A program made the translations under genes and the position numbers. DNA of 64,000 nucleotides. Source: Trichechus inunguis (taxonomy: Eukaryota). Position 1 is the stretch's first letter, and each line of letters opens with the position of its first letter. The notes under the pieces were generated by a model, which was not told the DNA's origin, searched no databases, and worked only from the letters and a program-made list of their open reading frames with translations. Location: positions 28,205,733 to 28,269,732 of the forward strand of contig CM102154.1 in NCBI GenBank assembly GCA_046562895.1. Direction: 5' to 3'. Shown in pieces: positions 9,481 to 32,175 of this stretch.

Positions 9481-11523
9481 GTGAATGTTTTTTTATAGTG
9501 GAGAAACTCCGACAAGATTCAATTACTGTGAAATCTTTATTTAACCCTGTCTTTGGGTACAAATCATAAAGGAGATGTTCTTAGAAGTTCTCCCTAAAAA
9601 CACAACTCTTCATGGTTTCTCATTCCCTCCTACTTCTCCCATTCTTTTTCTCTTCAATCTTCCTTCTCGTCTCTTTTATATCCTCCTTGCCCCTATTCAT
9701 TTTCAGCTATATTCCTAGTCTATCTTAAACGGAGACCTATTTTTTAAAAACCCTAGTAAAATAAGAAAATCTCAACAAAAACAAACAAAAGCATGTCAAG
9801 TACTTCCAGGACCAGAACGAAGAAAGGTGTTAAGGGAGGCTCCTTCATCTCACGATTAGGAGATTGTGCCATAAGCCTGAGTATCTTAATAAACAATGGG
9901 GATGGAAGTCTCTCCTCCACAAAAAAACTGGCCCTTCCTTGCGTTGAGCCACCCAGGGGTCAGACATAGAAATACCACACAGGAAAGATTTAAAAAGTGA
10001 AACCACTGTTATCAGAAAGGCTCTAGAGAAGAGAGTAGGCTGGCAATAGCAGCAGAATTCTCTGAAGGACCTCTGGAAGTGACTACTTCCCCTTTCCTGT
10101 GGAGCAAAGGGCACAATATGCCCCATTAGCTTCTTTTCTCTGACTGGAATGCATTTCTTCTCTAACTGGTTAGTTTCTTGGCAGCCTTCAAAATCCGGCT
10201 CAGACTATACCTATTCGATGATGCTTTCCCTAACAGAAGGCTTCCACGGGCAGAGTTCATTCTTCCATCCTCTGTGCTGTCATAGGACTTTGTCCATACC
10301 TCTAAGTCCACTACAAAACGGGTATTTGTTTATGAGTCTGCCTGCTGCTCAGGAGCTTTCTGAGCTTTATACTGCTAGTACCTCATGCAGGGCCTGGCAC
10401 ATAGCAGGTAATTAATAGTTGTGTGAGGGAGAAAGAAGAGAGGAAGAAGCAAAAAAAGGAAGGAAGGGCAGGATGTAGGGAGGGAGAAAGGAAGCATCTG
10501 AATCAACCCTCCCTGGCCAACAGAAAGGGAAGTGGATTAAAGAAACTCCAGAGGAAAGGGCTGAAGAGGGGGGAGGGGTTTGAACAACTTTGTTGGATCA
10601 GATTTTCTGCTTCCAACTCCTTTCTCTTCCATTTCTCTCAAAACTTGGGATCTCATACCACAATTGTCTTGTTTTCATTCTGGATCCCTCAGTTCATCCC
10701 AAAGGGAAAGAAAGAAGCCAGATGGGCTTCTGACTTCTTCCACTCCATCCCCTCAACCTAGTATCCCTTTCCCACTGTGGGCACCTTCATCCTTCACCTC
10801 TGCCCTTCTCAACTTCCCCACATACAGCACTCCCTCCTCATCACGCTGGAGGGCCCTCAGGCATCTCAGGCCCCTTTTCTGTATCCAGGTCCACACAGGA
10901 ACTTCTGCCTTAGACTGAAAACAGAGGCTCTTTAGGGCAGCCTGTGGTGCCTAGGCTTGGGAAATACTAGACTGAGACTACAAAGTTGCCTGAGAAAGAA
11001 TATTGTCAAGAGGGCTTAGGCATCCTAGGGATTATAGAGTAGAAAGGACTGAACAATTTACAGTCGACTCTTCTCCCAGCAGTTCTCAGACTCTTTCATG
11101 GATAGCCTTTTCTCCTTTACCCATGGGTGAGAATTATTTTTCTGACTGTTCTCTAATGGCCCCTATAACCCCCTTGGTTACTGGAGCTTCTTGACTCTCC
11201 ACCTAGCCAGATACACTTTCCTCCAAGAATTGCATCAAGATCCATAAACCCGAGTATAGTTGCTCATGGGTCCCCTCTTACCCAGATATTCAGCTGCCTC
11301 CTGTTCCCCTACACTTGTTCTCCAGGAGTTCTAGAACCACCTTTTCCTCAGTGGAGATTATATATATAAAAGCAATTTGTGAGCTCTAAATTCTCACCAA
11401 GTGAGAATAAAAAAGCTATCATGAATGAAGCCTCTCTTCCTCTACCGCCCCATAATCTCTGCCCACTTTTCATGATGTTCCTTATCCCTTCCTTACCACC
11501 CCCTACACACCGCTGTTCCCCCT

Positions 11524-12076
11524 TCACCCAGCAGGTTTGGTTTGGTGCAGGACAGGACCCAAAGCTACATGTTGCACGGTGGGCAGTGTCAGGATGCAGG
11601 CAGGCATCTCAGCTCGAGGCCTTGGCAGAGCTCCCAGGCAGAGCCATCTCCCCAGGCCAGGGCAGTAGGCATGAATAAGGTGGGAGAGGGCATAGGTATG
11701 GTGACTGTAGCCCCCAAGAACTAGTAGCTCCCCCTGCAGCACAGCACCAGCAGCCCCCACATGGGGGGAGGGCAGAGGTGCAAGGTGAGTCCAGCTATCA
11801 GTCCTTGGTTCATAGGTCTCGAAGCTCAGTAAGTCCCCAGTCTCCCCAAGCCCACCTGCTACATACAACCGCCCGCCCAGAGCAGCCATGACGTGGCCAG
11901 CCCGAGGTACCCCCATAGGGCTCAGAAATGTTCCTGGATTCTCAAGTTTGGGTTCATAGTGCAGCAGTGAGGCCAGGAATCGACCAGTTTCACCGCAGCC
12001 GCCGCTCACATACAATCGGCCCTCCAAAACAGCAGCTGCATGGGCAAAGCATGCTGCTGGAAGCGCAGGTGCTGGC
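11524..12076 (-). CDS. KLHL33: KLHL33 last coding exon (Kelch repeats, stop at 11524-11526)
   Basis: Acceptor cttag| at 12077-12081. Translation is ...GRLYVSGG...GRLYVAGG...LLVLGGY... (Kelch GG motifs) ending ...HQTKPAG*. The incoming phase closes the codon ag+g. Confidence 0.6.
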
Positions 12077-12175
12077 CTAAGAGAGAACAGGACACAGATC
12101 AGTCAACTATCATCTTCAACTCTTCTTCTATTCTAACTCCCATAATACCTCAGAAACACCCCCTTCCCTGCTCAC

Positions 12176-12343
12176 CTCCAGATATTGAGCTTGGGGTTAT
12201 AGGTCTCCACAGAGTTGAGGGCAATGCCATTGTCTTGACCACCCAGGGCATAAAGTTGGCCATCCAGAGCCACCAAGGGGAAAAGGCTCCGCGCCTGACA
12301 CAAAGGTGCCTTCTCCTCCCAGTCTTCTTGACTGGGATCCCAT
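12176..12343 (-). CDS. KLHL33: KLHL33 coding exon 3 (Kelch repeat)
   Basis: Acceptor gttcag| and donor |gtgagcag. Translation is RWDPSQEDWEEKAPL...LDGQLYALGGQDNGIALNSVETYNPKLNIW. Phase is compatible with the flanking exons. Confidence 0.6.
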
Positions 12344-12469
12344 CTGAACACAGTGGGACAAGAGATTAGATGAGTGATTCTGGGAGCCCACAGTTGGCTG
12401 GGTCAGCAATTTCCCTCACTTGCCCACCTTGGGGCCTGCCACATGCTACCCACTCTCAGGGACCCATAC

Positions 12470-13394
12470 CTGAGAGTTGAAGCCAGGGTGCTGGAGTGGC
12501 TGTAGAAGTCCTGTCCTCCACACACATAGAGTTCACTTCCTGACAGGCTCGAAGCCCCATGACGGAAACGCCCAGGAGCAGGCAGGGTGGGTAACTGCCC
12601 CCACTCCACAGTTCGCACCAGTCCCATGCCACAGCAGAAGGCCTGGGCCCACCACACTCCTCGGGACGGCTGTCTTATGGCCATGTCTGGTCGAAGCCCA
12701 TCCCCACCAATCACCACCAGTGCCCGGTCAGGCTCCCTCCGCCTCTCCTGACCTGGAACCTCAGCCTCCACCATCACCTGGTGCAGTAAGTCCAGGGGAA
12801 GGAATGGGGGTAGCCCAGCCGCCCGCACCCTCCGTAGCTCCCTGGTGGACATGCGACCAAAGCGGACACATTGCAGCAGGGCCTTGGCCTCTGACTCCTG
12901 GGTCTCAGGGTTGGCAGCTAGCCAACACCGTGCAGCCACAAAGGCCTCAAACTCCTCCTGCACATGAAGCTCATCACTATCTAGGAGCTCAGCCAGGCAG
13001 GCAACTGGTAAAGAAGGGAAAGTGGGGCACAGAACCACAGCAGGAAGGTGGGTGAGGAGGTAGTGATGGGCTTTGCTCCAGAGCCTCTCCAATCCAGGGG
13101 CTTCAGCCATGGGGAACAGGGCCAGGCAACGGGCAGGGCTAAGGCCCTGCACCAAGGCTCTCTGACACAGAGCTAGGCAGGAAGAGCTCTGGTACTGCAC
13201 AGCAGCCTGAGCAGCTCTCAGCAGTCCTGGCCACCTTGCCTGCACAACCCCGGAGTAGGCAAAAGAGACAAGGAGACGCAGGTCCTGAGCAGAGATACTG
13301 CGCAGAGACACCTCCGTGCCCTGGGATTCCTTCATCCCACTCAGGAGCATGGCCCTGAAGAACTCACTGCCACAGGCAAGGGCTGCTCGGTGCA
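12470..13394 (-). CDS. KLHL33: KLHL33 coding exon 2 (second half of BTB#2, BACK domain, first Kelch repeats)
   Basis: Strong acceptor (polypyrimidine tract then ctgcag|) and donor |gtatggg. The 925-nt ORF reads ...VHRAALACGSEFFRAMLL...VSFAYSGVV... (BTB), then BACK, then ...VVIGGDG...LYVCGGQ... Confidence 0.65.
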
Positions 13395-14064
13395 CTGCAG
13401 GAGGGGAGAAGAAGCAGAGGGGGACACAGAGTGTTGTAAGGCTGCTGGACACCATCCCTATTCCACAACACCTAATTTGGGAGCCAACCACCCAAGGCTA
13501 CAGGCCAGACTGTAGTGCGCATCAGAAAAGCATGGAGTGCTTGTTAAAATGCAGATTTCAGGGAGCCACCCCCAGAGATTCTGATTCAGTAGGTCTGGAT
13601 GAAGACCCTAAAATTTTGTGTTTTAACATTTTCAGGCACCCTGTTAGTGGCCTGAAGACACTTTGAAAAATATTGCTTTAGTCTCTTTGATCCAGATGAG
13701 TTAGAAAAACAGTCTCAGTAGATCAAGTTGAGAAGGTGCTATAGACAGCATTTGCTACAAGCAGGCACAAAATAAACTAAAGAGACCAATGTACAACTTA
13801 TATAATTCTTTCTGTATCATGCACAGAATAATGTTTTTTTCTTTATTGCAAGAGCCATTGCTATCCACCATTCTGTTAGTCAGATTTGCTGGGAAAGTGG
13901 TACAACAATCAGGAATGGCTGTAACTCAAACTTGTCTGACTGCCATTTCCTCTTGCCCAAGATTTAGCACTTAAGATTTTCCATGAGTCCTAGCTTTCCA
14001 GTGTGCCTGCTCCCACCTTGCCATCGTTTATGGAATCATGAGATTTGAAATGTGAAAGAAATCT

Positions 14065-14500
14065 GTTATGGATTGAATTGCATCCCCCTAAATTATGTGC
14101 TGTAAATCCTAACCCCTATACCTGTGGTTACATTCCCATTTGGGAATGGATTTTCTTTGTTATGTTAAATGAGGCAGTACTAGTGTAGGAGGTGTCTTTT
14201 TTTTGGGGGGGGGGTGTCTTAAATCAACTTCTTTTGAGCTATAAAAGAGCAGATTAAGCAAGCAAGCAAGTAGAGATGGGGGAAGATAGATGCTATGCCA
14301 CACCAAGGAGCCAAGGAACAGAAGATGGAAAGAGACAAGGCCCGTCCTCCAGAGCTGACAGAGAGAGAAAGCCTTCCCTTAGAGCCGGCGCCCTGAATTT
14401 GGACTTCTAGCCTCCTAAACTGTGAGAAAATAAAATTCTGTTTGTTAAAGCCACACACTTGTGGTAATTCTGTTATAGCAGCACTAGATAACTAAGATAG
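14065..14500 (+). mobile_element. MLT1-type MaLR solo LTR
   Basis: Starts tgttatggattgaattgcatccccctaaattatgtgc and ends ...gttaaagccacacacttgtggtaattctgttatagcagcactagataactaa. This matches the MLT1 consensus architecture (ccctgaatttggacttctagcctcc...aactgtgagaaaataaa). Confidence 0.7.
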
Positions 14501-15974
14501 AACCTTCAAAATCATCTAGCTCAAATTACTCCTTTTAAGATAAGGAAACTGAACCCCAAAGAAAGAAAGTGATTCGGTTACTATTTCCATGCAGTGGCAG
14601 CCTGGGCAGATCATCACCATCCAGTCACTGATGTCAGGCTACAACGGACATGCTGCTGTATCTGTAGCTTGGTTATCTACACAATCCTCATGTCACTGAA
14701 ACTGTCCTATTGACAACTAGACCTCATATGCCTCCTGATACAACTCAATTAAAGGCACACATCACCTAAGGAGTATTCTGGCCAAAATATTTGGCCTAAC
14801 TCTAATCTAGCCTTTAAATCTAAATTTCAGTTTATAGGAAATTGAGAAGCTAAAGGAACAAGTTAAACAAAACCATGGGGGAAATTTTCAAATCTAGAAA
14901 ATGGAGCATTCTATAGGATAACCATGTAATCTTGTTTCTTCAATAAGTCATCATAGAAAAGGGAGGTAGGACTGTATTGGATTAAAAGATACTTAAGAGA
15001 CATACAACTGAATATACCATCCTTGATTGGCTCCTGGGTTGAATAAATCAGCTCTAAGAGACATTTTTTTTGACAAATGGAAAAATATAAATGTGGACTA
15101 GGTGATATTAAGGAACTACTGTTAATTTGTTGTGGCTATATGAGAAAATATCCTCTTTTAAAGAGACACATATCCAAGTATTTATGAGTGAAATGTCATG
15201 AATTTACTTTAAACTTCAGCAAAAAATAAATGAAGTAAAGAGATGAAACAAATACAGTAAAAATGTTCATTGTTAAATCTGGGTGATGGGTGTTTGGGCA
15301 TTCATTTTAATATTCTCTTTGCTTTGTGTTTGAAATGCTTCATAACAAAAAGTAAAAAAAAAAAAAAAAGCTGCTAGAGGTCCTCTCAGGCAGGTCACAT
15401 AGAGGCCAAGCTACCAGAGAGTCTTATGAATTCCATACTGCTTTGACCAATTGTGACATGTCTGTGTCTCTCAAAGGGCGGGTGATGTTGCTATGGCTTT
15501 CCGTGCTCTTTTTAAGCAGTAGGTAGTGGCCGAGTGCTTCCCAAGTGGTAAACATCAGTTTTCAAATATATATTGTCTGAGAAAAATCTGTATTCACAGA
15601 AGCAGATGAAGCCATCTCAGCTTCCATATCATCAATCAACCCATAGTGCAGTGACAACTGTGAAAGCGCTCACACCACTTGTATCCTCTTCTTACTCATC
15701 ATTATTCCTGAGGATTTTTAAGTGACAGGTTCCTACCAATAAGTTGGAAAGTTTCTTAAGGAAACGAAAGCAGTGAATTATGTTTACATTCCAAATATGC
15801 TAGTGAGAATTCTATAGTTATAGAATCTTAAATTCATCTACTGCTATCAGAAATGGTAACAAAAACTTTAGGGATTCTTTTCCTTCTAGGAGTCCCAGAA
15901 GCACTCTGGGTCCTCTAATGAGTAGCAGCTAGGTGACTGGGCACATCTTGAAGTGTGATTTCTTTATCAGTATA

Positions 15975-16150
15975 GTGAAACCCTGGTGGTGTAATGGTTA
16001 AGAGCTACGGCTGCTAACTAAAAGTTTGGCAGTTTGAATACACCAGGAGCTCCTTGGAAACCTTATGGAGCAGTTCTACTCTGTCCTTTAGGGTCGGAAT
16101 TGACTGGACGGCAATGGCAACGGGTTTGGTTTTTTTTTTTTTTTTTTTGT
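15975..16150 (+). mobile_element. AfroSINE
   Basis: ccctggtggtgtaatggttaagagctacggctgctaac...ctactctgtcc...caatgg..gggtttggtttttttt. Confidence 0.8.
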
Positions 16151-16519
16151 AGTGTAAGTAGAACTACCCCATACAGTTTCCAAGGAGTGACTGAACATGT
16201 CAGAGCTGATCTAGATAATCTCTAAACTAATCCCTTGTAACTTTAAACCTTTACATGCCCATATTCTGACTCCATTTTCCATGTGTTTTTAGTAGGGCAC
16301 CATAGGAGGCAATGCATGGTCTAGTGGAAGCAGACTGGGCTAGTGGATGTGGCTTGTAGCCGATTCTCACCAGTTAACGTCTCTAAGTTTAATGGTCCTT
16401 ACCTGCACCTAGGGAAAATGGTACCTATCTCATTAGCTTTCAGTGAGAATTAGCAGAGGTGGCATGTGTAAAATTCCTGGCACCCAGTACCTCACTAAAT
16501 GTTGGTAGAATCTGATTAA

Positions 16520-16705
16520 CACTCAGCTTGCCCTGGTGGTGCAGTGGTTCAGAGCTAGGCTGCTAACCAAAAGCTCTGCAGTTGGAATCCACCAGCTGCT
16601 CCTTGGAAACCCTATGAGGCAGTTCTACTCTGTCCTATAAGGTTGCTATGCTATGAATTGGGATCAACACGATGGCAATGGGTTTGGTTTTTTGGGTTTA
16701 GCTAA
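16520..16705 (+). mobile_element. AfroSINE
   Basis: ccctggtggtgcagtggttcagagctaggctgctaaccaaaag...ggatcaacacgatggcaatgggtttgg. Confidence 0.8.
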
Positions 16706-17221
16706 CACTTAGCTTTCCTGGTGCCATGCCTGGTAGCCTTAAGATTCTGGCAAAAGAGTACCAGACCTTGTTCATTAGCTGCAAGACCCACAAGTTTGCC
16801 ATGGTGTTGAGCACACTTAGGCGAAAGGACACACTATGAGTTTCACTGGCTTTTCCTGTGTCCTGAATTGACGATGCCAAGAAACGCCTTTGGTTTCAAT
16901 CACTTTCTGCTTGTTCTGCTGCCATGGATTGCACCCTTATCTCCAGCCAGCTGGCTAGGAAATCCTTGTTACTGTGCGCAGGCAAAGCCAGAGGGTGGTG
17001 GGGGTGGTCAGTTTAAATCTGTCAGTGCTCTGAGGAAAACAACTCAACTGCGCATGCTCCACTCTCAATGGGTCAGGAAGGCACCAAAGGCCACCCCAGG
17101 GAGATTCTGACTGTAGCAGGGATCAAAACCACTACAGTCGGGATCAAACTACCTGCTGTTTCCACACACCATTCCGGTAGCATATGCACCAGCAATAATG
17201 TAATGCCTCACAGGCCCTCAC

Positions 17222-17972
17222 CCCTCAGCCGGCAGCCTCCTGCCTCCAGCTGCAGGTCACACCCGACGCCCTCTCGGAATAGGAGCTCAATACTGCGCAA
17301 GTTCTCCCTCAGCTCCTCCGCCTGGCTGGACTTCTTTTCATCTTGCCGGGTGCTTCCAGCCCTCTCGAGTCTCTGCTGGGCCACATCCTTAACCCGGGGC
17401 GCTCCCAGGGCCTCGGCAGCCGCCAGCACATCCTGCATCGGGACTGGGCCCAGCACCCCCTCATAGGCAAAGTTCAGCACTGCCTCCCAGCCCCGGGGGG
17501 CCACGTCGAGGCTGAGGGGGTGCTGTGGCCCTCCGCTGCCCAGCAGCCTGCGTCGGAAGAGGCTGCTGACTGCAGCCAAGATCACCCGGTGCACTCCGTA
17601 TACTCGCCCCCCAGCCGACACCTCTTCGTCCAGTAACAACCTCTGCTCCCGCAGCCGCTGAGCCTCGGCGAAGAACTGGCTCGGATGCTCCTCGCTGCGC
17701 AGCCCCTCCGGCTGTGCTGCATCTTCATCGTCCTCATCTTCTTCCTCCTCTTCCTCTAGGAACAAGGCTGTAGAGGGAAGCTTCCCCGGGGCCAGGGATC
17801 TGGGGCCAGGCTCTTCCAGAGGAAAGGGGGGCAAGTTGGGATCCTCGTCCGGGGAGGAAGGCCAGGAGGGGGCTCTCCGGGCGGGCAAAGGGAGGCCAAC
17901 GCCGTCCTTCTGGACCGGAAGGAAGGTGCGCCTTGGGTCCAAGGAACTAGGCGCTGTGCCCGAGACGCTCAT
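17222..17972 (-). CDS. KLHL33: KLHL33 coding exon 1 (ATG; proline-rich and acidic N-terminus; complete BTB#1; start of BTB#2)
   Basis: ATG at 17972-17970 in Kozak context (gccATGa). The 250-codon ORF includes an EEEEEEDEDDED run and a BTB fold (VYGVHRVILAAVSSLF...LNFAYEGVL...). Donor g|gtgagg at 17222 joins in phase to the 13394 acceptor (…LEAGGCRLR|VHRAALA), recreating a BTB consensus. CDS total is 2397 nt, 798 aa. Confidence 0.6.
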
Positions 17973-18700
17973 GGCCCTGGCCGGCTGGATTCAGGCAGGT
18001 GAGCAAGTCAAGAAAGGAGGAGGTCAAAGCTGAACACAGAGAGGCCAGAGGAACCCCTGCCTCCAGCTCTGCGAAATGTCCCTCCCGCTGCGACACCCCC
18101 CTACCCATCCTCCCAAGGTGACATCCCAGGTTCCAGCAGCTGGGCTATCTGGGTGCAGCTATGGGGTTCATGAGGTGCAGGGAAGCATGCAAGTAGCGTG
18201 TATAAAGATCCACTGCTCCGAACCTTACCCTGCCGGTCTTGTCCGAATACCGCCAGTCTCCTCCAGAAGGACAAATGTTCCCCCTCGCCCTCTCACTTGC
18301 GCGCCGGCTCTGCTTGGAGCCGTGTGGCAGAGGGTATTCGCTTCGCATCCGGGTTCAGGGCCCCATCTGGCTAATTATAGCCAGCACTGGCAGGCTAGGG
18401 GCTGGCCTCGCGGTGCCCGAACTGACACTCAATCCCTGGGCCGGGTCCTCCCCACCCCCTTCCAAGTGTAGGTCACGCCGTGGTGCTGAGGGAGGCGAAT
18501 TCGGAAGCCAAGGAGGATGCGGGGACGGGTGGTGACCCAGGCCAGAAGGACTGATCATGGGAAGAGGCTGGAGAACAGGGGCTTATCTAAGGCAATGCAG
18601 GAATGGAACCTGCTCTGAGCGCCACTTGAGGGGTGGCGATGGGGGGTGGGGGGAGCACGGAGCAGTTTCTATTAACCATCAGTTTCCATCGCCAGCTGTG
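17973..18700. promoter_or_regulatory. KLHL33: CpG-rich KLHL33 5' region, putative promoter
   Basis: High CpG density lies immediately upstream of the KLHL33 ATG on the minus strand, e.g. gcgcgccggctctgcttggagccgtgtggc. Confidence 0.4.
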
Positions 18701-18964
18701 AGAGATCATTCAATAAGTTAAAGCTAATACAGTACTTTGTGTTTGAGAGCCACCGTGGGTCAAGGCAGACCATATGATCTTGCTCTGCTGAGTGTAAGAA
18801 AAAGAAGAAACTGACGAAAATCAGTTTGAGCACATCATAGACCAATTTTCATCGATGAAAGCAAGAAAGGTGCAGTTGCATTTTTCACGTAGTACCATAA
18901 TGTGTTAAGTAAAAGACTGAGGAGCTTGACTTGTATTTTTGAGCTGATATGGTACAAAACCAAT

Positions 18965-19020
18965 AAATCAAACCCATTGCCATGGAGTCGATTCTGACCC
19001 ATAGCCACCCTATACGATAC
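18965..19020 (-). mobile_element. AfroSINE 3' fragment
   Basis: aatcaaacccattgccatggagtcgattctgacccatagccaccctatac. Confidence 0.55.
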
Positions 19021-21311
19021 AGTTGTCTAAAAGATGGATGTCAGATGTTTAGACAGGGACGCAGAAGTAGATAGCGAGGGCGGGTGGTTAGAGGGGAGCA
19101 GTTGCACTCCCACAAGTCCAAGGGGAGGCCAGTCGAGGTGCAGAATGACACTCCAAGGCACCACAAATATGAGAAGCATCTGACTGAGGCAGCTGGACAA
19201 GAGGGAGGAAGGCATTTCTGCTGAGGCATGGCCACTAACATCTATTCATTTTGAAAGGGGGGGGGGCTGTGTTTTGGGTCAGTCCTGGACTTTTTGCGGA
19301 AGATGAAGTTGGGATCCTGGAGTAAACAATACCACTGTGAAGTGCAAACATAGCCAGGCCCTGTCCATACAGGGCAGAGAGATGAAGGGCTGGGCTGGAG
19401 AGGTGAAGGGACAGGGATCTGGGCTACGAACACCTAGGTGACCCATCCCCAGCATGGGGCTTCCTGTGGGGAGATCCAACCCTGTGTCTTTGATAGAGTC
19501 TGGGGGAATCTAACCCTCGCCTTGGCCTCCTAGTGGAAAGTGGGGGTCGATCTCTGGTGCTAACGGGAGTGGAGTCTTGGACTGGATGGGCTGGGGGTGC
19601 ACAAGTAGTCAGTTTGTGGAGGGGCGCCAGTAGCTATACCCTTGGCCAGGATAATACCCACTTCTGCGTCCTGAGATTGGGTCCTAGGATGAAGCCCCGA
19701 AAGCTGGCATTTGCTCTGTGCCACAGTTCCGTGTGTCTTCTTAAGAAACAGATTTGGGAAGCGGGGGCAGAGACGCCCTTCCTCTCCCCTCTCCCAAGAA
19801 AGTAGGACAGGCCATGGGCTGTTGGGGGTGAACTCCCTGGCTTACAAAAAGACTGGACCAGACTGGATAGACTGAGCAGACAAGCCGACTTCAGGGGAGC
19901 CAGGCATGACTGTCCTGTACAATTCAGATGAGAGGGCTAGGGCTTACGCGAATGAGGGGTGGGAAAGTGGGTTGCCTGGCACAATACCCCCTCTGGCTCC
20001 CAGAGATTCCCCTGCAGCCCAGTTGCTTCCTGGGTACCCCGGCCAACCAAAGGTCGCATTCTGCGGGTTAGCACTACCCTGGCTGTGCTCAGCCCATGGG
20101 CTGCACTCCCCAAAATGGTTTGATGGAGAGAGCAAGCTGGTGGCTGCGATGACCAGCCCAGGAAATGTTCTTTGTTTTTCGCAGCCACAGGTTGTCCTGT
20201 CTGGTGGAATGGGGCAAAGTGACCAGCCTCTGCACCCTCTCTCCCAACCCAGACCATTCAGACACCTGGCATGGCCTCCCTGCAGCAAGACAATGCAACC
20301 AGCACCTTGAGCCCCCACCAGGCAGAGGAGGAACCCCATTAAGAAGTCCTGGCTCTCCACCTCCTCCCCCCACAAGGACAAGGACAGTGGCCCCCATCGT
20401 GAGTTCTATGCCAGCTCTATGGTCCCAGACAGCTCCACTGCAGTCACTAGTCTCAGGAGGCCTTGCGTGGCTCGATCATGGTTAGACCCATGCCTGGCAG
20501 TGAGTCTCCGAAGGATGGATAATACTTGCCGTCCTGGGCCACCACCTACCCTCCATTAAAGCCCTAGGACTGCCCTCCCTCCATTGGACTTCCAGGCCTA
20601 TCAGCTGCTAACTCGTTGGTTGGAGAAGGGTCTTGGCATCTGCCACATCTGTGGAATCTTAGCCAGGGAATAGCGAGGCTTCGCAGAGCTGCACTCCAGA
20701 AAGATGATTCAGAGAATTCAGGGGCGAGGCCGGGCAAGGCCCCAGTGCACTGGCTTTGGCTGGGTCATGGAAATCATGACAACTGGAGCTCGGGGTTCCC
20801 AAAGGTTGGGGATGCAGGCCAGCAAGAGAGAACTTTACTCCAGAGTAGATTCAGAGGGTAAAATCTCAAGAATGGAGGAGGGGACTTGGGAAGAGGGAAA
20901 TGGGTTCCCACTGAAGATCGCTGCTGCTCCCTTACCACTCTGCTCCCCAGATGCATCCTGTTGCATGCTCAACACCTAGGGCGTTAACCTCTACTTGAGG
21001 ATACCTTGGATCACCGACCGCTCAGAGTGGCACAGGTATACGCTGAGGGCTCTCCTGGGCAGTAGAGGAGGGGTGGGAGATGGGCCTAAATGAATTAAAT
21101 GAGCCCCTACTCCCGTCCCCACTCCAGCTCTCACATGGCTCATTATCCTGCTCTCAGCCTCTATCACCACCATCACTGGCCTATTTTGGCCATCCCCACC
21201 TACAGCAGAGTCAAAGCTGGTGAGTCTGTCAGGATCTGATTAGCTCCAAGAATTCCCAGTCCTGTCTGGAATTGCTGACCACATACTAGCTCCTCTTTTC
21301 TCTCCTCTCAG

Positions 21312-21448
21312 ACAGCATGTACTTCCTCATCTCATGCAGCTTGGGTCTGGAGTTCCATGGTTCCCTAGGGATGATATCTGCTGTCACCAGTGCTGCCGTA
21401 GATACGCAGACTGTGAGCTGTGGGGAGACCCTCTCAGACGTGCTCTGG
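21312..21448 (+). pseudogene. SLC12 (NCC/NKCC-like) unprocessed pseudogene, exon a
   Basis: Acceptor ctctcag| and donor |gtaata. Translation MYFLISCSLGLEFHGSLGMISAVTSAAVDTQTVSCGETLSDVLW aligns 1:1 with the SLC12A3 segment [45 protein letters not shown]; the conserved R and P are lost. Confidence 0.6.
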
Positions 21449-21634
21449 GTAATACCCATCGCCTCCTCCTCTGATGCCCTCCTTCTCAAGTCTGCTCGTT
21501 TTCCTGATCACCCCACCCAATCCTTTGTCCTCTGTGACTCCAGCCCAGGAAGTAGTTTTAAGAATCCGACAGACATCAATCTGCCGATAAACACTGACTC
21601 TATAACCTCCTACCTCTGTGTCCTGCCCTTCCAG

Positions 21635-21770
21635 GAGCATGGTGTGCAGCTGTTAAACACGGATCAGGAAAATGGGTTTGAGCGTGGTGGGAGTTGTGGG
21701 GGTGGTCGGTGTGGTGACTGTGACCATCCTTCTGGGCCTGGCGCTGGCCAGCATGGAGTGGGAGTCTAAG
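21635..21770 (+). pseudogene. SLC12-like pseudogene, exon b, with internal frameshift and (GTG/GTC)n expansion
   Basis: Acceptor ccttccag| and donor aag|gtaggc. Frame 0 reads EHGVQLLNTDQEN (cf. EYGAPIVDPINDI), then a +1 shift gives MGLSVVGVVGVVGVVTVTILLGLALASMEWESK (cf. [25 protein letters not shown]). Confidence 0.6.
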
Positions 21771-22927
21771 GTAGGCAGTGGGGAAGGGGGTTGGAGGGAT
21801 GGAGGTGACGATGAGGACACTGAAGGGATGGTGGTGAGAACAGAGAACTGCAGTGTAGGATGATGAGGGATGGTGTGTGCATGTATGCATAAAAGCAGCT
21901 GCCACCTGAGAGAGCCAGGCTAAAAATGGGGGAAGGAGCTAGTGGAGTAGATTCCCAAGGACCAAGAGTTGAGGGGAACCACCTGGAAAAGAGCTGAAAT
22001 TAGAGGGCTTTGTTGGGAGAGACTCCACACCTCAATTCTTCAATGGGAAGGACTTACTCTGAGAACCTATGGGATAAACACTAGAAAAGGTCATGGGGGA
22101 ACACTTTTTTTTCCCAGCAGCCATCTAGTACTCACAGCAATCCCATGTACCAGAGAAGATGCCCTGCTTCTTGCTGCTAGATATTTACAGTCTTGAGATT
22201 CACCTCCTCTGGCATGGGAAGGAACACTTTGCAGTTTGAGGCAAGAAGGAAAAGGACACCCATTTGGCCAAAATTCTTACGGGAAAAGGAAATCAGGAGA
22301 TTGAGGCAAGTTAGGATGGAACAAGGAGAGTTAGAAGGCGCAGTAGTAGTTACTCCTCTGCTTCCACTCATATTTTTCCCTTCATTATCCATGGTATTCC
22401 AGGCCCAAATTATCTTCTTCCAGAGCCTTTCTTTTATCAACTACCTGCTGAGGACACTCCTCCCCACAAACCCCAGCCAACAAGCAACTGGCTTCCTTGG
22501 GTAACAAGGCAAGACAGTGGAAAGCTGGTTGAGAAATGTATTAAAGGGAGGAATGCCTTAGAATATCACCTCCCCTTGGAGCAAGGGACCTACCTCCTTA
22601 GCACAAACCTCCTCAGAAAAGACTCCTTGACTTCTGATTCTGCATGTTCATTTGCAAGTTGACCATAAAACCATTCATAGTTCTGTAAGTCTCTGGACTA
22701 GCTAATTTACAAAACTTCCTTATTCTTCCCAGTGTAACCCAAGCCACTGACACTAAACTGGGCAAACCCGTTGCCAATTCTGACTCACAGTGACCTCAAA
22801 CTGAGTAGTGGGGTAAGGATCCTGGCTGGTTGAAGGAAAGCCTCCTCAAAATCCCATCTCATATGTCTGTTCTTTCACATAGAAAGCATTTTCTTGAAAT
22901 ATATGGTTCTACAATGGCGTGGTACAG

Positions 22928-23011
22928 AGGGCAATCTCTTTGGTATGTTTTCCATCTTCTTGCTGTGGCCACTGGGTCCTTGCTGGGGCCAGTATCTCTG
23001 GGGACTTCAAG
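22928..23011 (+). pseudogene. SLC12-like pseudogene, exon c', with two frameshifts
   Basis: Donor caag|gtgaga. Three frames together read GNLFGMFSIF / ATGSLLG / VLAGASISGDFK, which corresponds to SLC12 [28 protein letters not shown]. Confidence 0.55.
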
Positions 23012-23108
23012 GTGAGAAGAATGTCCAGGCATGGAGAACAAATATACTCTGTCTCCCCTCCCTTTCCCCACTCATAGCCTAACTTTTGTTACCAGCACCC
23101 TCTTACAG

Positions 23109-23180
23109 CTATCCCCAAGGGGACTCTCCTTGCCATCATGTGGACCACACTTTCCTACCTGGGCATCTCTGCCACCACTG
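23109..23180 (+). pseudogene. SLC12-like pseudogene, exon c
   Basis: Acceptor ctcttacag| and donor actg|gtaagg. Translation [24 protein letters not shown] matches SLC12A3 [24 protein letters not shown]. Confidence 0.65.
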
Positions 23181-23934
23181 GTAAGGCCTTCCACTCTTAC
23201 TTTCTGCATACAATGACCTGGAGCCCTGGCTTCTGCCTTCCCAAGGGGCTAGGGTATAGGTGATTAAACGAGCAAGAAGCATTCATCAGTCACACTAATA
23301 GTAGTTAGAAAAAGGCAGCATCCCCGCCCCCCATTCTTTCACCATTTCTCCCCACCCCTCATATCTGTTAATGATGTGGTGTTCTTTGATTATCAAAAGA
23401 CTCAAATGGAGGTATGTGGAGTGGAGGAGGGGCAGTTTTACCCCTGAGTTATAAATTAGTACAAAATTAGACCCGGCTTCAGGCTATTTTGAAGGAAGTC
23501 CTGAGTACCTACTTCAAAAAACTTAAATGACAGAATGAATGTAAAGCTCTTAACACAGGCCCTGAGACTAACAATGGTATGACAATACTATTATTAAAGG
23601 ATTACTAGAGTATCATCTATGATTTCCCTTCAATCTTGTCTCTTGAGCAGCAGCCTCCAAGGCTACCTGCAGTCAGCCAGGGCTCTGCTCTGACCCCTGC
23701 CTTCTTAATCATTCACCCCATCAACAAGAATTTATACAGTTCTATATTGGTCCTGAACAACCCAAGCCAATTACCAACATACAAAACAAAAAATACTTTA
23801 TTATTGAGTCATTTTAAAGTTTGAATGAAGGGAGAGGGAAATCCAGAGCCTTCCTAGGATTCCTACATCAGGATAAAGATTAAGGCCCTTGGGCTCCACT
23901 TAGGGCACTATCTACTCTGATCTTGTTAATCTTG

Positions 23935-24098: not shown

Positions 24099-24230
<132 letters not shown>

Positions 24231-24295
24231 CTAATAGTAGAAAATCAGAGTGATGGGAAAAGAGAAAATGAAATCAAGTTTGAGAAAAGGCCTTA

Positions 24296-24397
<102 letters not shown>

Positions 24398-24547
24398 TTA
24401 GCTTAGTTTTAGACACTTCTACGTGGCCTAGCTATACACCTCACGTGTAGTTACTTAGAAAAATGAAGTACGGGCTTGGGGGGCAAGGGTTGGGAAGAAC
24501 AGGACAAGAAATGAAACTACTGATTTCCCCAAGCCCTTAGAGATTTA

Positions 24548-24706
<159 letters not shown>

Positions 24707-24820
24707 CTATGAAGAACAAATATTATGAAAACATCAGAGGGCCATCCCAACTTAGTTCTGCTCTACCATATAAAAACTCCTCCAGTCCTAATCTTCTGTC
24801 CCAACTTTTTACTCCATTAC

Positions 24821-24886
24821 CTGCAAGGAGAAACACAGATCCTCAGGAGTACACTCGCCTGTGGCTAGCATCCGCTGGGCTGCATC
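24821..24886 (-). CDS. OSGEP: OSGEP exon 7
   Basis: DAAQRMLATGECTPEDLCFSLQ; acceptor tatag| and donor |gtaatgg. Confidence 0.8.
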
Positions 24887-25287
24887 CTATAATTAACAGG
24901 GGTGGGAAAATACTGGTGTTGGGGTTACATGAGATGAAAAATTAATACAGAGGATCACCTTGTTTCACCACAATTCAAGTCACCAGTACATCCCATACTA
25001 CATTTTGCCCTTCACTGGCACTGAACTATAGAGAAGGCAGCATTCATTCAAAATTCAATAATTATTTCTTGAGTGCCTGCCCTGACACTCCCCCTTACCC
25101 TGCTTTATTTCTCTCCACAGCAATTATCACCATCTGACACTTCATATTTTTTTTTCTCTCTCTTTTTTGAATTTATTATTTCTTTATCCTCTATGCCTCC
25201 AAGCAGAGAGAAATTTTTGTTTTGCCCCATGCTATATCTCTATTGCCTAGAACAGCGCTTGGCACATAGAAAATGCTCAATAAGTTA

Positions 25288-25518
<231 letters not shown>

Positions 25519-25651
25519 TTATATGAAACACTAAGCCTATAGTCAGCTGGCTGCTCCTCCTCCAAAGCCCCTCCCAATCCTCATTCATACACATACAAAG
25601 AACCTCCTAAAGCCCCACCAGTCAGCCTTCCTCCATCTTATGTTCCCTCAC

Positions 25652-25701
25652 CGCTTTGCCATCTGTTCAATGTTGTAGCCTGGACTTGGGTCATTGGAAA
25701 T
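25652..25701 (-). CDS. OSGEP: OSGEP exon 5
   Basis: ISNDPSPGYNIEQMAK(R); acceptor ctgccag| and donor |gtgaggg. Confidence 0.8.
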
Positions 25702-25816
25702 CTGGCAGAGAGAAAAACAGGAAAGAAGTGAATGAGAGCATGAGGTCAGATATCCAGGAACCATAATATTTACCAGTTCCTCCCTCCATTTCCATGGCTC
25801 CCCAGAAATTCAATCA

Positions 25817-25945
<129 letters not shown>

Positions 25946-27520
25946 CTAAGGGTGGTGAGGATGTCCATGAAACCTCAAGTCTGTAAAGACGAGTATTTGG
26001 CTTTGGGGAAGAACACAGCAGAGGATCAACATGGCCACTGAACTTTCTGATAAGAAATCAAGAAAAGTGTTTTACCAAATCCTGAATGGGTAATTTTCTA
26101 TAGCTCTTATCTGAGAAGCAGCCCATATACCCTGAGGATTCCTAGAACAAATTCCTAACTTACAGAAAATATTCTAGGTTGGGCCAGAAGCAAATTGTCA
26201 CTTTATATACATTTTTCTAGCTTGGAGGCCCCCGATACGTTGCTTAGAAGCAGTTTGACAATGTGGACTAGGGAACAGGTTTTCCTGCTTAGAGGCACGG
26301 AACAAGCGCCCTTCTAGATTATACTAACAAGGTATTTGGAAACACGGGAAGAGGCACAGCTGAAAAAATCAAAATCCTATATTGGGCCAGACTAACGACT
26401 CACTCAACTCAGCAGTGGCAACTGACTTATGTCCATTCTTCGTATGTGACTAGCTTCTAGCACAGAACATATTATCACCCACTGACACATCTGCTCCACC
26501 CTTCCCACAGTGAGGGCTTCCTAGGGACCATAAAAACTCCTCTTCCCTTGCTGAAGTTGCTACGCATTTCCTTCCTTTCTGATGTACATCTTACTCTGCT
26601 GTCAACAGGTTTCAGCTACCAAAAAGCTGGTGACAAAAGAGCAGAAAAAAATCCTGCCTTTCTACTTCTGTTACTCACTCCTCTCCACTCAATCTTGTTT
26701 TTTATAACTAGGCAAGCTTCATAAAGGAAGAAGAGAAAACTCCATCTCTGATTGTCCTCATCAACCCCTGCAGCCTCCACTGTTACTTTCTGTACCCCAA
26801 ACTCCTTTTATGTTATCCTTCCAGCTCCAATTAGCTCCTTGCCCTCTACCTCCTGAAGTTCCCACATCATTTCCATGAATATGTGTTCCTCATCTTTAAT
26901 AATTATTTCACAAAATGAAGTTTTAGAACATAACCCTTTCAAAAGCTGAGGACGACGCTGAACTATCCCTGATAAAAACTCCATCAGGTGTTCTGTGGGA
27001 AAGGAAGACTGGCGTCCTCTGATCCCAGCCTCAAAAGGTCTTGTAAGGTATCTCAAACAACTCTGGTTTCACCTATGAACGTAATACCTTTACCATTTAT
27101 AAACTGCTTTTTAAAGTTTTTATATTTTCACACTTCTGGAGTAACAAATTCTATATGTTTACCACCAATAATAAACATTGAGTAGTGCTCCTTAGTCTTA
27201 GTTATTAAGTTTTATAAAAAAAATAAGCTTCAAGATATTAATAAAAAAAACCTTCCATTGTTTTGAAGGCTTCAATCTTTACCAATCCTTCATTTTCTAA
27301 ACTGGAGATTCCTAATCTTTACGTATATAAAAGTCACCCAATACTACGTCCTGCCCAAGTCTGCAATGTTACCAACTCTGTTGTGGGTTTTCTGATGTCT
27401 AACATTTTAGGCTCAGATGAATCCGGCTTTGTTCTTGCAGTTCCCGCCACCCATGCAGAACACATAAATTGCTGGTATGGCACCTCAGAAATTAAAAAGG
27501 TATGAGTGGTGTATTCTCTA

Positions 27521-27802
<282 letters not shown>

Positions 27803-27815
27803 CTATTTTGACCTA

Positions 27816-28010
<195 letters not shown>

Positions 28011-28151
28011 TCATAGGATTTTTTTTTTGTAGCAATGGTAGGTAGAAGAGAAAAAGTATTGTAGGAAGAATCCTTGTCTCCTGAAATATCCTGTCTTCTA
28101 GGCTTTCACATATTCCCTTTCATAATTTCCAGTCTCCATATAGGCTGTTAA

Positions 28152-28355
28152 GGAGCCCTGGCTGCACAGTGGTTAAAGGGCTCGGCTGCTAACAGAAAGG
28201 TTGACGGTTTGAACCCACCAGCCACTCCGCAGGAGAAAGACGTGGCAGCCTGCTTCTGTAAAGATTACAGATTTGGAAACCCTATGGGGGTAGCTCCTAT
28301 AGAATCACTATAAATCAGAAGCAATCTGATGACAATAAGTTTGGTTGTTTGTTTG
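28152..28355 (+). mobile_element. AfroSINE (variant subfamily) in an OSGEP intron
   Basis: ggagccctggctgcacagtggttaaagggctcggctgctaacagaaaggttgacggtttgaacccacc... Confidence 0.75.
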
Positions 28356-29250
28356 AGATACAGGCTGTTCAGCTCTCAGAAATGTCCTTCTTCATAATCA
28401 ACTTAGTCTCAGGACTCAATTTAAGTCATACCTACCCCATACCCTTTAGTGATATTTATTTGTGACCCTATATAACCCAGTACATGTTTATACACAACAC
28501 TTAACATGTAACAATTATTGCTAAATAACAGAACCTACTAATTATAATTCCATGAGTACCTCAAAGCATTGGCTGTCTTTATTTTTGTACTCCCGGTGTC
28601 CGAGTACCTAGAAAAGTGAATGCTAAATATACATATATAGTTTTTCAGGTACACACGTGTCAGATGCTCTCTCCTGAGTGTGCAGGTGTATTAAGGGAGG
28701 GTAGGTGAAATATAATAGTTTAAAAACAAAATTTGATAAAAGTTGTAATGTGTTTCCTATTTTTATTTAATTTTCAAGAACCAATGATCATCCTCATTTT
28801 AACAGTAAAGAAGTCCAACAACATGGACACTGAATATGAACATTACAAAGCCATCTGACGTCTCAGCTGGGTCTTTCCACTCTGATCTCTCACTCTTATT
28901 CTGATTCTAAACTATTTCGATTGCATCTCTGATACTGTTTATAGTATAAATATATTTACACCCGCCTCCACAACAGGCTTACGACATCTATTTTTGTGTC
29001 CAGCAGCCAGCCAATGCTTGGCAAGTAAAAGACGCTCAACAAAAGCTAAGAGAATCCTGAAGATCCAGGTCTGAGTGCCTGCTGACTCTTCTATCCACCA
29101 GCCTTGTGACCTTAACACTGTCACATAATATCAGTGAGATTCCGATCAAAAACTGTAAAATGGGATAATGCACCTCACTTCACTCATGTTTAGGAAGATA
29201 GAGGGTGACACTGTGGTGAAGCGCGCCGTAAACTGCAAGCCCGCTACTCA

Positions 29251-30350
<1,100 letters not shown>

Positions 30351-30408
30351 ATGCCGAAGCGTGGGAAAAAGGGAGCTGTGGCAGAAGATGGGAAAGAGCC
30401 CAAGACCG
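30351..30408 (+). CDS. APEX1: APEX1 first coding exon (MPKRGKKGAVAEDGKEPKT)
   Basis: Acceptor ttgcag|gg followed by ATG at 30351; donor accg|gtagga. An upstream non-coding exon was not resolved. Confidence 0.85.
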
Positions 30409-30612
30409 GTAGGAAAATAAAATGAGCCCCTTTTCTGGGGGCTGCGGTGGGGGTGCTTCCAATCAATGTTCTCGATGAAGGAAGGGGAAGTATGGACTGA
30501 GTCTTGTTTTTGCAGGTTTTATGTGATGAAGTCGCAGGTTCTCGGGCATATGGTTAACTCCATGTAAAGGGTGGGAAACCACCAGCTTTTATCACTGTGT
30601 ATTATTTTGTAG

Positions 30613-30800
30613 AGCCAGAGGCCAAGAAGAGTAAGGCGGCAGCAAAGAAAAACGAAAAAGAGGCAACAGGAGAGGGTACAGTCTTATATGAGGACCCCCC
30701 AGATCGGACAACCTCACCTAGTGGCAAATCTGCCACACTTAAAATCTGCTCCTGGAACGTGGATGGGCTTCGAGCCTGGATTAAGAAGAAGGGTTTAGAT
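30613..30800 (+). CDS. APEX1: APEX1 coding exon 2
   Basis: Acceptor ttttgtag|. Translation is [63 protein letters not shown], then donor |gtgagt. Confidence 0.85.
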
Positions 30801-31322
30801 GTGAGTGGAATTCAAGGAGGGGAGGTGAAATTACCTTTTCAGTCCGTAGGATGCAGTTTTTATTTTCCCTTGCCTGTAATTATCTTGTGGAAGAGGTACA
30901 AGGGGAACTTCACAAAGACTTGCTAGTTGTGTTTATTAAACAGCCATTCTCTCAGTTCCACTGCCGTTGTCTTATGTCCTCATTTCTTTCCCAGTGTTTC
31001 AAAAATCTCTTTACTGGACTTTTCTTCGTTATATCTCCAATATATCCTTCATTCCAATTAACTACTGTTTAGAAATCTTAACTATCCACTGCGTATTTAA
31101 AAAATTTTTTTTTTCTGGTGGAGCACTCAAGACCCTTCTCATCTTTCTGCTTTACTTATTATTGTTAGAACACTTAACGTTGTTTTATACTTGTTTAAAT
31201 ACTGTTCTGCTAGACTGTTGAACTCCTTGTGCACAAAGGCTCTCCTGTGAATTTCTAGTATTTACCATATAGAGGTTAAACAAATGTCTGAATTGGTAAG
31301 ACTTTCTATTTTTCACTCCCAG

Positions 31323-31515
31323 TGGGTAAAGGAAGAAGCCCCAGATATTCTGTGCCTCCAAGAAACGAAATGTTCAGATAAAAAACTGCCAGCTGAACTT
31401 CAAGATTTGCCTGGACTGTCTCATCAGTACTGGTCAGCTCCTTCCGACAAGGAAGGGTACAGTGGTGTGGGCCTACTCTCCCGCCAGTGCCCACTCAAAG
31501 TCTCTTACGGCATTG
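31323..31515 (+). CDS. APEX1: APEX1 coding exon 3
   Basis: [64 protein letters not shown](G); acceptor ctcccag| and donor |gtgagac. Confidence 0.85.
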
Positions 31516-31657
31516 GTGAGACACTATTGATCCCTCATGCCTGAGCCCTTCCAAACCAATTGCTAATACCCTATTCCTGCCCCAACTCTTGATTCCTTCA
31601 TTCTTTGCTTTTTCTTTTGTAGTTCTTTCTGCTGATAGTCTTTTATCTTTTCTGTAG

Positions 31658-32175
31658 GTGAGGAGGAACACGATCAGGAAGGCCGGGTGATTGTAGCTGA
31701 ATTTGATGCATTTGTGCTGGTAACGGCTTATGTACCTAATGCAGGCCGGGGTCTGGTGCGGCTAGAGTACCGGCAGCGCTGGGACGAAGCCTTTCGCAAA
31801 TTTCTGAAGGATCTGGCTTCGCGCAAGCCTCTTGTGCTATGTGGGGACCTCAATGTGGCTCATGAAGAGATTGACCTTCGCAACCCCAAGGGAAACAAAA
31901 AGAATGCTGGCTTTACTCCACAAGAGCGGCAAGGCTTTGGGGAATTGTTGCAGGCTGTGCCACTGGCTGACAGCTTCCGGCACCTCTATCCCGATACAGC
32001 CTACGCCTATACCTTTTGGACCTACATGATGAATGCTCGATCCAAGAATGTTGGCTGGCGCCTTGATTATTTTTTGTTGTCTCAGTCTCTGTTACCGGTG
32101 TTGTGTGACAGCAAGATCCGTTCCAAGGCCTTAGGCAGTGATCACTGTCCTATCACCCTACTCCTAGCTCTGTGA
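31658..32175 (+). CDS. APEX1: APEX1 last coding exon (exonuclease-III family catalytic core, stop TGA 32173-32175); total CDS 957 nt, 318 aa
   Basis: Acceptor tctgtag|. Translation is [15 protein letters not shown]...[38 protein letters not shown]...[12 protein letters not shown]. The polyA signal AATAAA lies near 32409. Confidence 0.9.

Follow-up and report, generated by a model that had tools for sequence, protein, structure and literature searches.

A second Na-Cl cotransporter gene of ancient vertebrate origin, SLC12A10 is the tenth paralogue of the SLC12 family and a paralogue of the thiazide-sensitive SLC12A3. It is still present in horses and most non-mammals, and the nine SLC12 genes usually listed for human and mouse do not include it; SLC12A3 maps to another chromosome. 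Two articles state, citing Motoshima et al. 2023, that SLC12A10 is pseudogenised or deleted in most mammals and that slc12a10 pseudogenes occur at the locus considered here in various mammals; they also mention a report of the gene in horse and platypus (PMC11145369, PMC11381001). The loss of SLC12A10 in mammals is already published, and the manatee relic described here is real but ordinary. In the literature that we searched, no paper paired slc12a10 with OSGEP, KLHL33 or APEX1, or with manatee.

We analysed a window of 64 kb, the whole stretch of DNA examined, from the manatee Trichechus inunguis. Positions 20700-23180 very probably represent a unitary, unprocessed SLC12A10 (NCC2/NCCbeta, also 'ncc3') pseudogene at its ancestral locus in the manatee genome, with only the front third of the gene left. 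The relic resembles horse SLC12A10 and the reported mammalian slc12a10 pseudogenes in exon order and in its KLHL33-OSGEP-APEX1 neighbourhood (seen in rhinoceros), and pseudogenisation is a fate it has in common with the copies described for most mammals. Unlike horse SLC12A10, it keeps exons 1/2 to 9 only, the 3' two-thirds being gone. SLC12A3 (NCC) belongs to the same subfamily, sharing the APC/LeuT-type AA_permease fold and the TM1-TM7 motifs, including AIPKGTL. A unitary pseudogene of another gene family, AQP10 in Cetartiodactyla (bioRxiv 10.64898/2026.09.20.752922), likewise reflects the in-situ loss of an ancestral single-copy gene with introns retained, a mixture of frameshifts, nonsense mutations and exon deletions, and losses repeated independently in several lineages.

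Chromosomal setting

The anchor genes of the locus in the window are as follows.

11527..17972, minus strand: KLHL33, upstream anchor (533-aa CDS at 11527-13350; BTB-domain ORF at 17208-17972)
24099..29370, minus strand: OSGEP, downstream anchor, located by a tblastn search in which human OSGEP was the query (the rhinoceros neighbour carries Pfam TsaD)
30351..32172, plus strand: APEX1, anchor, with the reconstructed protein compared across species

The APEX1 reconstructed from the window matches T. inunguis KAM9646387.1 in every residue, and differs by one amino acid from that of T. manatus and by several from that of dugong. The KLHL33 of the window shares only 93% identity with that of elephant, and on this ground elephant was rejected as the source.

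The relic lies between KLHL33 and OSGEP, both on the minus strand, which is where an earlier, sequence-only reading had put it. White rhinoceros contig JH767728.1 has the same order and orientation: KLHL33 (minus), an SLC12-like gene (plus) and OSGEP (minus). This rhinoceros gene is near-complete, with AA_permease and SLC12 C-terminal fragments; its DNA is colinear with the window, and its exons share 76-100% identity with horse SLC12A10 in most tblastn matches. In Xenopus laevis, a gene annotated as 'slc12a3-like' lies about 3 kb from apex1. The SLC12A10 group therefore has a conserved chromosomal position (rhinoceros, X. laevis), and the rhinoceros synteny, together with the horse SLC12A10 protein records (BDR accessions) and the literature on horse and platypus, shows that a gene still functional elsewhere has its ancestral position here. 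The flanks examined at the snake and Poecilia loci contained no neighbouring genes. In golden mole, no SLC12 relic was seen in the KLHL33-OSGEP interval, but this interval contains two assembly gaps.

Exon relics

Relics of eight or nine SLC12 exons follow one another in the expected order on the plus strand of 20700-23180. These are listed below, together with a tentative remnant of exon 1, a repeat and the junction of a deletion.

20383..20427, plus strand: possible exon 1 remnant (N-terminal cytoplasmic domain), DSGPHREFYASSMVP compared with ..PRYEFYALSAPP..; tentative
20700..20778, plus strand: exon 2 relic, ..KAPV[+4 bp]FGWVMEIM, from DNA alignment to the rhinoceros locus (L001)
20951..21035, plus strand: exon 3 relic, TM1, CMLNT, a stop and then GVNLYLRIPWIT; AG and GT both present
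21128..21219, plus strand: exon 4 relic, TM2, LTWLIILLSASITTITGL / AIPTYSRVKAG, translation also given as LTWLIILLSASITTITG
21312..21448, plus strand: exon 5 relic, TM3, MYFLISCSLGLEFHG...; frame kept, net -3 bp
21635..21770, plus strand: exon 6 relic, TM4, EHGVQLLNTDQE / ..TILLGLALASMEWESK, from alignment to rhinoceros
21684..21716, plus strand: tandem repeat inside exon 6, GTGGTGGGA (TRF, period 9, 3.7 copies)
22403..22508, plus strand: exon 7 relic, TM5, AQIIFFQSLSFINYLLRTLLPTNPSQQATGFLG and a stop (AQIIFF..SFINYLL..ATGFLG, stop)
22883..23011, plus strand: exon 8 relic, TM6, SIFLKYMVLQWRGTEGNLFGMFSIF...ISGDFK, frameshifted
23096..23180, plus strand: exon 9 relic, intact and in frame, AG/GT kept; the final SLC12 exon left
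23397..23423, no strand: junction of the deletion of about 10 kb, from blastn colinearity; its two sides align with rhinoceros L001 10960 and 21003

The exon 1 candidate gives a weak tblastn match to a snake NCC2-like N-terminus (E=0.22), and its position corresponds to the rhinoceros segment DTGPRSGFYANSM (L001 8099-8206). Introns of roughly 80-630 bp, colinear with those of rhinoceros, lie between the eight relics from exon 2 onward. AG acceptors are kept in all eight and GT donors in six; the donors of exon 2 (AC, after ATCATG) and exon 7 (GC) are lost, both being GT in rhinoceros. Introns are retained, the exon structure matches that of the parent and there is no poly-A or other signature of retroposition, as expected of a unitary (unprocessed) pseudogene and in agreement with the earlier proposal of an unprocessed, intron-retaining one. 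A processed pseudogene was rejected because of the retained introns.

The concatenated translation (249 aa) matches Pfam AA_permease (PF00324) at 2.7e-14 and is colinear with residues 145-394 of human NCC/SLC12A3, which it matches with E=5e-64 and 219 bits, compared with 1e-40 for NKCC1 and about 1e-9 for the KCCs. With an AA_permease core and branch-specific TM1-TM7 motifs in order, the relic belongs to the Na-dependent (NCC/NKCC) branch of SLC12, the clade to which the sequence-only reading had assigned it. The plus-strand motifs on which that reading relied (MYFLISCSLGLEFHG, LALASMEWESK and FGMFSIF...ISGDFK) are all present and ordered as in the family, although the residue before MEWESK is S, not G as it had stated. 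Its "at least four" exon segments are real but an undercount, since exons 3, 4 and 7 were missed, and the FGWV piece that it had offered as a possible earlier exon is genuine: this is exon 2, orthologous to a rhinoceros exon.

Coding capacity and the 3' deletion

Frameshifts affect exons 2, 3, 4, 6 and 8, and there are two in-frame premature stops; these lesions are polarised against the rhinoceros copy, itself decayed, with the horse protein guiding the frame, and a few of the small indels could be alignment choices. In exon 2, ACTG is inserted at about 20749-20752 (4 bp), and PVRFGWV returns once it is removed. Exon 3 has insertions of 5 and 4 bp and a TGG>TAG change at 20977-20979, and a 4-bp deletion shifts the frame of exon 4. 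Exon 7 has two 3-bp deletions and a TAC>TAA change at 22502-22504. The frameshifts noted earlier in two exons correspond to the 19-bp insertion of exon 6 relative to rhinoceros and to the indels of exon 8 (+1, -2 and -1 bp; net -2). Likewise, LISRSLGPE has indeed had its invariant Arg and Pro substituted in exon 5, which reads LISCSLGLE. The GTG/GTC microsatellite expansion described for exon 6 is a real repeat, to which the GVVGVVGVV run of that exon is due, but amounts to a modest duplication. Both in-frame stops, both donor losses and the absence of everything 3' of exon 9 had been overlooked.

The rhinoceros segment that is missing at 23397-23423 holds all of the approximately 15 tblastn exon matches of rhinoceros past exon 9, which cover TM7-12 and the complete C-terminal domain. 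Neither the DNA of rhinoceros L001 10961-21002 nor donkey SLC12A10 residues beyond about 235 left a trace anywhere in the 64-kb window, and queries with the NCC protein, the SLC12A10 proteins of horse and donkey, and the rhinoceros DNA of the missing segment uncovered no 3' exons across the entire window. A functional member of the family needs an open reading frame for the complete 12-TM core and the cytoplasmic C-terminal SLC12 domain; here nothing is left past TM6/7. The relic is unable to encode a transporter, and the manatee genome presumably holds no intact SLC12A10 copy elsewhere.

Exon identity to rhinoceros (81.3%) is close to that of the introns (80.1%); therefore, there is no excess conservation of exons, and the relic appears to evolve neutrally. 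These values also bear on the idea that the remnant was exapted as a non-coding RNA, as regulatory sequence for KLHL33/OSGEP, or as a short N-terminal fragment, to which we give a very small probability. Exon 9 is intact and, at 90% DNA identity with rhinoceros across its 85 bp, the best conserved piece; AG/GT boundaries survive in most exons, and horse SLC12A10 is reported by Motoshima et al. 2023 to yield many truncated splice variants. However, exons and introns are equally conserved overall, a single 85-bp exon at 90% is within sampling noise, stops and frameshifts from exons 2-3 onward leave no meaningful peptide, and an Rfam scan of the whole window returned no match. A broader proposal is that the relic, with its TAG in exon 3, TAA in exon 7 and 3' deletion of about 10 kb, records a loss confined to sirenians or paenungulates and linked to altered salt and water handling during the return to water, or else that the exon 9 region was exapted as a regulatory or non-coding element beside OSGEP; in our view this is very unlikely. 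The pseudogene is most likely without function.

Affinity to SLC12A10 and course of decay

The decayed translation alone matched two database entries, and an alignment-based query reached the named SLC12A10 and SLC12A3 sequences. The nearest relative is horse 'solute carrier family 12 member 10' (P0018/P0019, BDR32795.1), with 63% BLASTP identity over 100% of the query, as opposed to 43-53% for proteins named SLC12A3. In the trimmed alignment, the relic shares 66% identity with horse and rhinoceros and 52-59% with SLC12A3, which is a paralogue and not the parent. SLC12A3 also lacks residues common to the relic and horse SLC12A10, namely LSAS.TTITG, VKAG, H.VQLLN.D.E, AQIIFF and LSFINYLL.TLLPTNPS.QATGF. 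A phylogeny of the recovered exons, as had been suggested, joined the relic with horse and rhinoceros SLC12A10 in 100% of 500 neighbor-joining bootstraps, and with mammalian SLC12A3 in about 1%. Annotated SLC12A10 is thus nearer to the relic than SLC12A3 and other paralogues are, and the relic is orthologous to the horse and rhinoceros genes. Deeper relationships were less stable: in a neighbor-joining tree of 456 columns, equid, frog and reptile sequences grouped with 48% bootstrap, the SLC12A3 clade with 65%, and equid plus SLC12A3 with 10%, and in simple neighbor-joining trees the fish slc12a10 sequences were pulled towards the NKCC outgroup. The basis for the name SLC12A10 is therefore threefold: how DDBJ/NCBI annotate the horse protein, the synteny, and the literature cited.

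The sequence-only reading had argued that true SLC12 paralogues map elsewhere, and had offered a segmental-duplication relic as one explanation. The premise fails, as SLC12A10 is a genuine paralogue whose home locus is here; that no known paralogue maps to a locus can mean that one's mental list of genes is incomplete. A segmental (DNA-level) duplicate of SLC12A3 or SLC12A1/2 that entered the KLHL33-OSGEP interval in this lineage and later decayed would account for the retained introns and for SLC12A3 being the best match among solved structures, although that set is without SLC12A10. Such a duplicate is highly improbable. It is contradicted by the tree, by the low identity to mammalian SLC12A3 (52-55%), by a far more complete homologue in the same position and orientation in white rhinoceros, a member of another placental superorder, by the frog paralogue adjoining apex1, and by the same-locus pseudogenes in many mammals that the literature describes. 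Rather than being absent from the outgroup locus and nested in the clade of a parent, the relic has a counterpart at that locus and does not nest with mammalian SLC12A3. The other suggestion, a lineage-specific gene death, was right about the death but not about its being peculiar to the lineage, as PMC11145369 and PMC11381001 have most mammals losing the gene.

That the manatee itself carries an intact gene, with the lesions and the missing 3' part being assembly or sequencing artefacts, is scarcely credible: draft assemblies can hold indel errors and collapsed regions, and nothing more specific favours it, whereas we count more than 10 independent lesions of various kinds, including substitutions that make TAG and TAA and destroy two donors. 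There are also amino-acid replacements at invariant positions, the deletion junction is clean and contiguous without an N run, and amino-acid identity to horse is only 66%, against 76-100% for most rhinoceros exons.

A decayed SLC12A10 at its own locus suggests the following course. Selective constraint was probably lost in the manatee lineage, after which the first nine exons gathered frameshifting indels, two nonsense codons, two donor losses and substitutions at invariant transport-site residues, and a single deletion of about 10 kb took the remaining exons (TM7-12 and the entire cytoplasmic C-terminal domain). The manatee copy is one data point on mammalian SLC12A10 decay, combining many small lesions with a large 3' deletion, and could help to date the loss in Afrotheria, but opens no new question. 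Its importance beyond correct annotation is small. The sequence-only reading did recognise a real dead gene. The lesions in rhinoceros are different ones: its stops fall at positions that read CAG or have no counterpart in the window, and TGG and TAC stand at the TAG and TAA of the window. This difference indicates independent decay, and the manatee gene probably decayed independently of those of other mammals.

SLC12 homology and position of the relic

The DNA of the window is mammalian, and translation of the plus strand between 20600 and 23400 in three frames, searched for SLC12 motifs, contained every motif that the sequence-only reading had quoted. The SLC12 homology claimed there for 20700-23200 was not only borne out but extended by three further pieces, namely CMLNT*GVNLYLRIPWIT, LTWLIILLSASITTITGL...AIPTYSRVKAG, and AQIIFFQSLSFINYLLRTLLPTNPSQQATGFLG*. 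When the translated pieces of the relic were concatenated, the resulting 249-aa conceptual protein matched AA_permease in Pfam (2.7e-14) and, among solved structures, human NCC (SLC12A3; 5e-64, 219 bits, residues 145-394), followed by NKCC1 (1e-40) and the K-Cl cotransporters (~1e-9). These E-values are well beyond chance and show that the SLC12 observation is real, and their order places the relic, as judged by similarity, within the NCC/NKCC branch and closer there to NCC than to NKCC.

The first database match was a 329-aa "SLC12A3-like" protein of the white rhinoceros, encoded on JH767728.1, where its gene is flanked by KLHL33 (-) and OSGEP/TsaD (-) and followed by a second predicted fragment with the SLC12 C-terminal domain. 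The genes of the window have the same arrangement:

Genes around the relic (window coordinates)
KLHL33: 11527-13350, plus a BTB piece at 17208-17972, minus strand
SLC12 relic: ~20700-23180, plus strand
OSGEP: 24099-29370, minus strand
APEX1: 30351-32172, plus strand

The two loci are also colinear at the DNA level, and the rhinoceros exon matches are mostly 76-100% identical to horse SLC12A10, indicating that a laurasiatherian and the window genome carry the same gene at this position. The sequence-only reading was right to recognize here an SLC12 pseudogene of the unprocessed kind, flanked by KLHL33 and OSGEP. One of the two origins proposed for it, as a segmental-duplication relic, is wrong, since a colinear SLC12 gene at the same KLHL33-OSGEP position in the rhinoceros rules out a lineage-specific segmental duplication. 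The assumption that this locus has no SLC12 paralogue of its own is wrong as well.

In Xenopus laevis, an "slc12a3-like" gene lies ~3 kb from apex1. On CM030340.1 (L003, 10001-25475), apex1 directly follows it on the opposite strand, and no OSGEP lies between the two in the fetched flank, so that the local gene order is unlike that of mammals. In the golden mole (L006, JH823273.1, reverse-complement 16968-21536), blastn and tblastn detected no SLC12 relic in the interval from KLHL33 to the OSGEP 3' region, which contains two assembly gaps (374 and 1085 N) that make gene loss and missing sequence indistinguishable there.

Assignment to SLC12A10

When the alignment was used as the query for a database search, many named vertebrate SLC12 proteins were among the matches. 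Two of them, both entered as "solute carrier family 12 member 10 [Equus caballus]" (P0018 and P0019; BDR32795.1), were closest in identity to the window translation, at 63% with 100% of the query covered, whereas SLC12A3-named proteins in the same search reached 43-53%. Once the alignment was trimmed to 249 columns, the translated relic showed 66% identity both to horse SLC12A10 and to the conceptual rhinoceros sequence, compared with 52-59% to the SLC12A3 proteins, whichever the vertebrate, and 41-45% to NKCC1/2. A phylogeny of the recovered exons had been proposed as a check in the sequence-only reading: by neighbour-joining with 500 bootstraps, the relic formed a clade with rhinoceros and horse SLC12A10 in 100% of replicates, and it grouped with mammalian SLC12A3 in ~1%. 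By eye, the window and horse SLC12A10 also share several stretches that are absent from NCC, including LSAS.TTITG, VKAG, H.VQLLN.D.E, AQIIFF, LSFINYLL.TLLPTNPS.QATGF, and one 22-letter stretch.

At greater depth, frog and reptile sequences join equid SLC12A10 rather than SLC12A3 in a 456-column tree, with a bootstrap of only 48%, and fish slc12a10 sequences are pulled towards the outgroup. Deep orthology to fish slc12a10 is therefore at most moderately supported by these trees. Overall, the comparisons identify the relic as a unitary pseudogene of SLC12A10 (NCC2), unitary as judged from the 64-kb window.

Lesions and loss of the gene

Lesions were called from the DNA alignment of window and rhinoceros, with the horse protein as the guide to reading frame.

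Exons of the SLC12A10 relic (window coordinates)
Exon 2: 20700-20778, plus strand; 4-bp insertion within PVRFGWV; AC donor, not GT
Exon 3: 20951-21035, plus strand; 5-bp insertion, TGG>TAG at 20977-20979, and 4-bp insertion
Exon 4: 21128-21219, plus strand; 4-bp deletion
Exon 5: 21312-21448, plus strand; net loss of 3 bp, in frame; LISRSLGPE changed to LISCSLGLE
Exon 6: 21635-21770, plus strand; 19-bp insertion at a short period-9 tandem repeat
Exon 7: 22403-22508, plus strand; two 3-bp deletions, TAC>TAA at 22502-22504; GC donor
Exon 8: 22883-23011, plus strand; net loss of 2 bp
Exon 9: 23096-23180, plus strand; intact

A weak trace near 20383-20427 is a possible exon 1. Downstream, window position 23397 corresponds to 10960 of the rhinoceros segment (L001, from JH767728.1) and 23423 to 21003. 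The 10-kb rhinoceros sequence between these flanks holds all remaining SLC12A10 exons, and neither DNA nor protein comparison found a counterpart of it in the entire 64-kb window; the relic has accordingly lost TM7-12 together with the C-terminal domain. Judged by these lesions, SLC12A10 in the window is a dead gene. The product of the ancestral gene was a second Na-Cl cotransporter, and the relic could make no product longer than a few dozen residues. Signs of exaptation, sought as an Rfam match or excess exon conservation, were not found; identity to rhinoceros is 81.3% in exons and 80.1% in introns, near-equal values as expected from long neutral decay.

The rhinoceros orthologue (L001 ~8100-16900) is also disrupted: it has in-frame stops near 9370 (HEV*LL) and 14006 (HVN*VN), and its exon 5 has lost 1 bp. 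The annotation nonetheless splits it into two protein-coding fragments, one of 329 and one of 253 aa. The lesion sites of the rhinoceros copy differ from those of the manatee, which fits independent losses in the two lineages.

SLC12A10 was studied by Motoshima et al. 2023 (Physiol Genomics 55:113), as summarised in two open papers. According to one summary (PMC11381001), expression of the gene is found in teleosts, coelacanths, amphibians, reptiles, platypus, horse, and zebra, whereas birds and most mammals have lost it by deletion or pseudogenisation. Since loss across most mammals is already reported, the window relic is an instance of a known phenomenon.

Neighbouring genes and mobile elements

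Window KLHL33 is closest to that of elephant among named species (93% identity, differences scattered along the protein). The 254-aa ORF at 17208-17972 (-) has its own BTB domain; the 533-aa KLHL33 CDS follows ~4 kb downstream in the same orientation, and the ORF is a candidate 5' exon of a long KLHL33 isoform. The rhinoceros KLHL33 product is annotated at 824 aa, with BTB and BTB_KLHL33 among its Pfam domains. The APEX1 protein, as reconstructed here, matches Trichechus inunguis KAM9646387.1 at every residue and differs from T. manatus by one residue and from dugong by several, which identifies the source of the window as a manatee. At 35994-36392 (-), a GC-rich ORF starting MAVAAMAADGERSPLLSEPIDGG... 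and without a Pfam match may be the first exon of PIP4P1/TMEM55B, which it resembles; going by the order of genes at human 14q11.2, this gene should come next after APEX1.

LINE-1 copies lie at 43925-47229 (+) and, as older fragments near the window start, at 4250-8088 (-), both overlapping low-GC, strongly AT-skewed blocks of the composition profile. The plus-strand copy may be relatively young, as it retains long ORF2 reading frames for the endonuclease (379 aa, Exo_endo_phos) and reverse transcriptase (705 aa, RVT_1). A 283-aa ORF at 60134-60985 (+) contains a retroviral integrase core (rve, 1.2e-9) and weakly matches the C-terminal domain of MLV integrase; it probably represents part of an endogenous retrovirus of the gammaretrovirus-like type.
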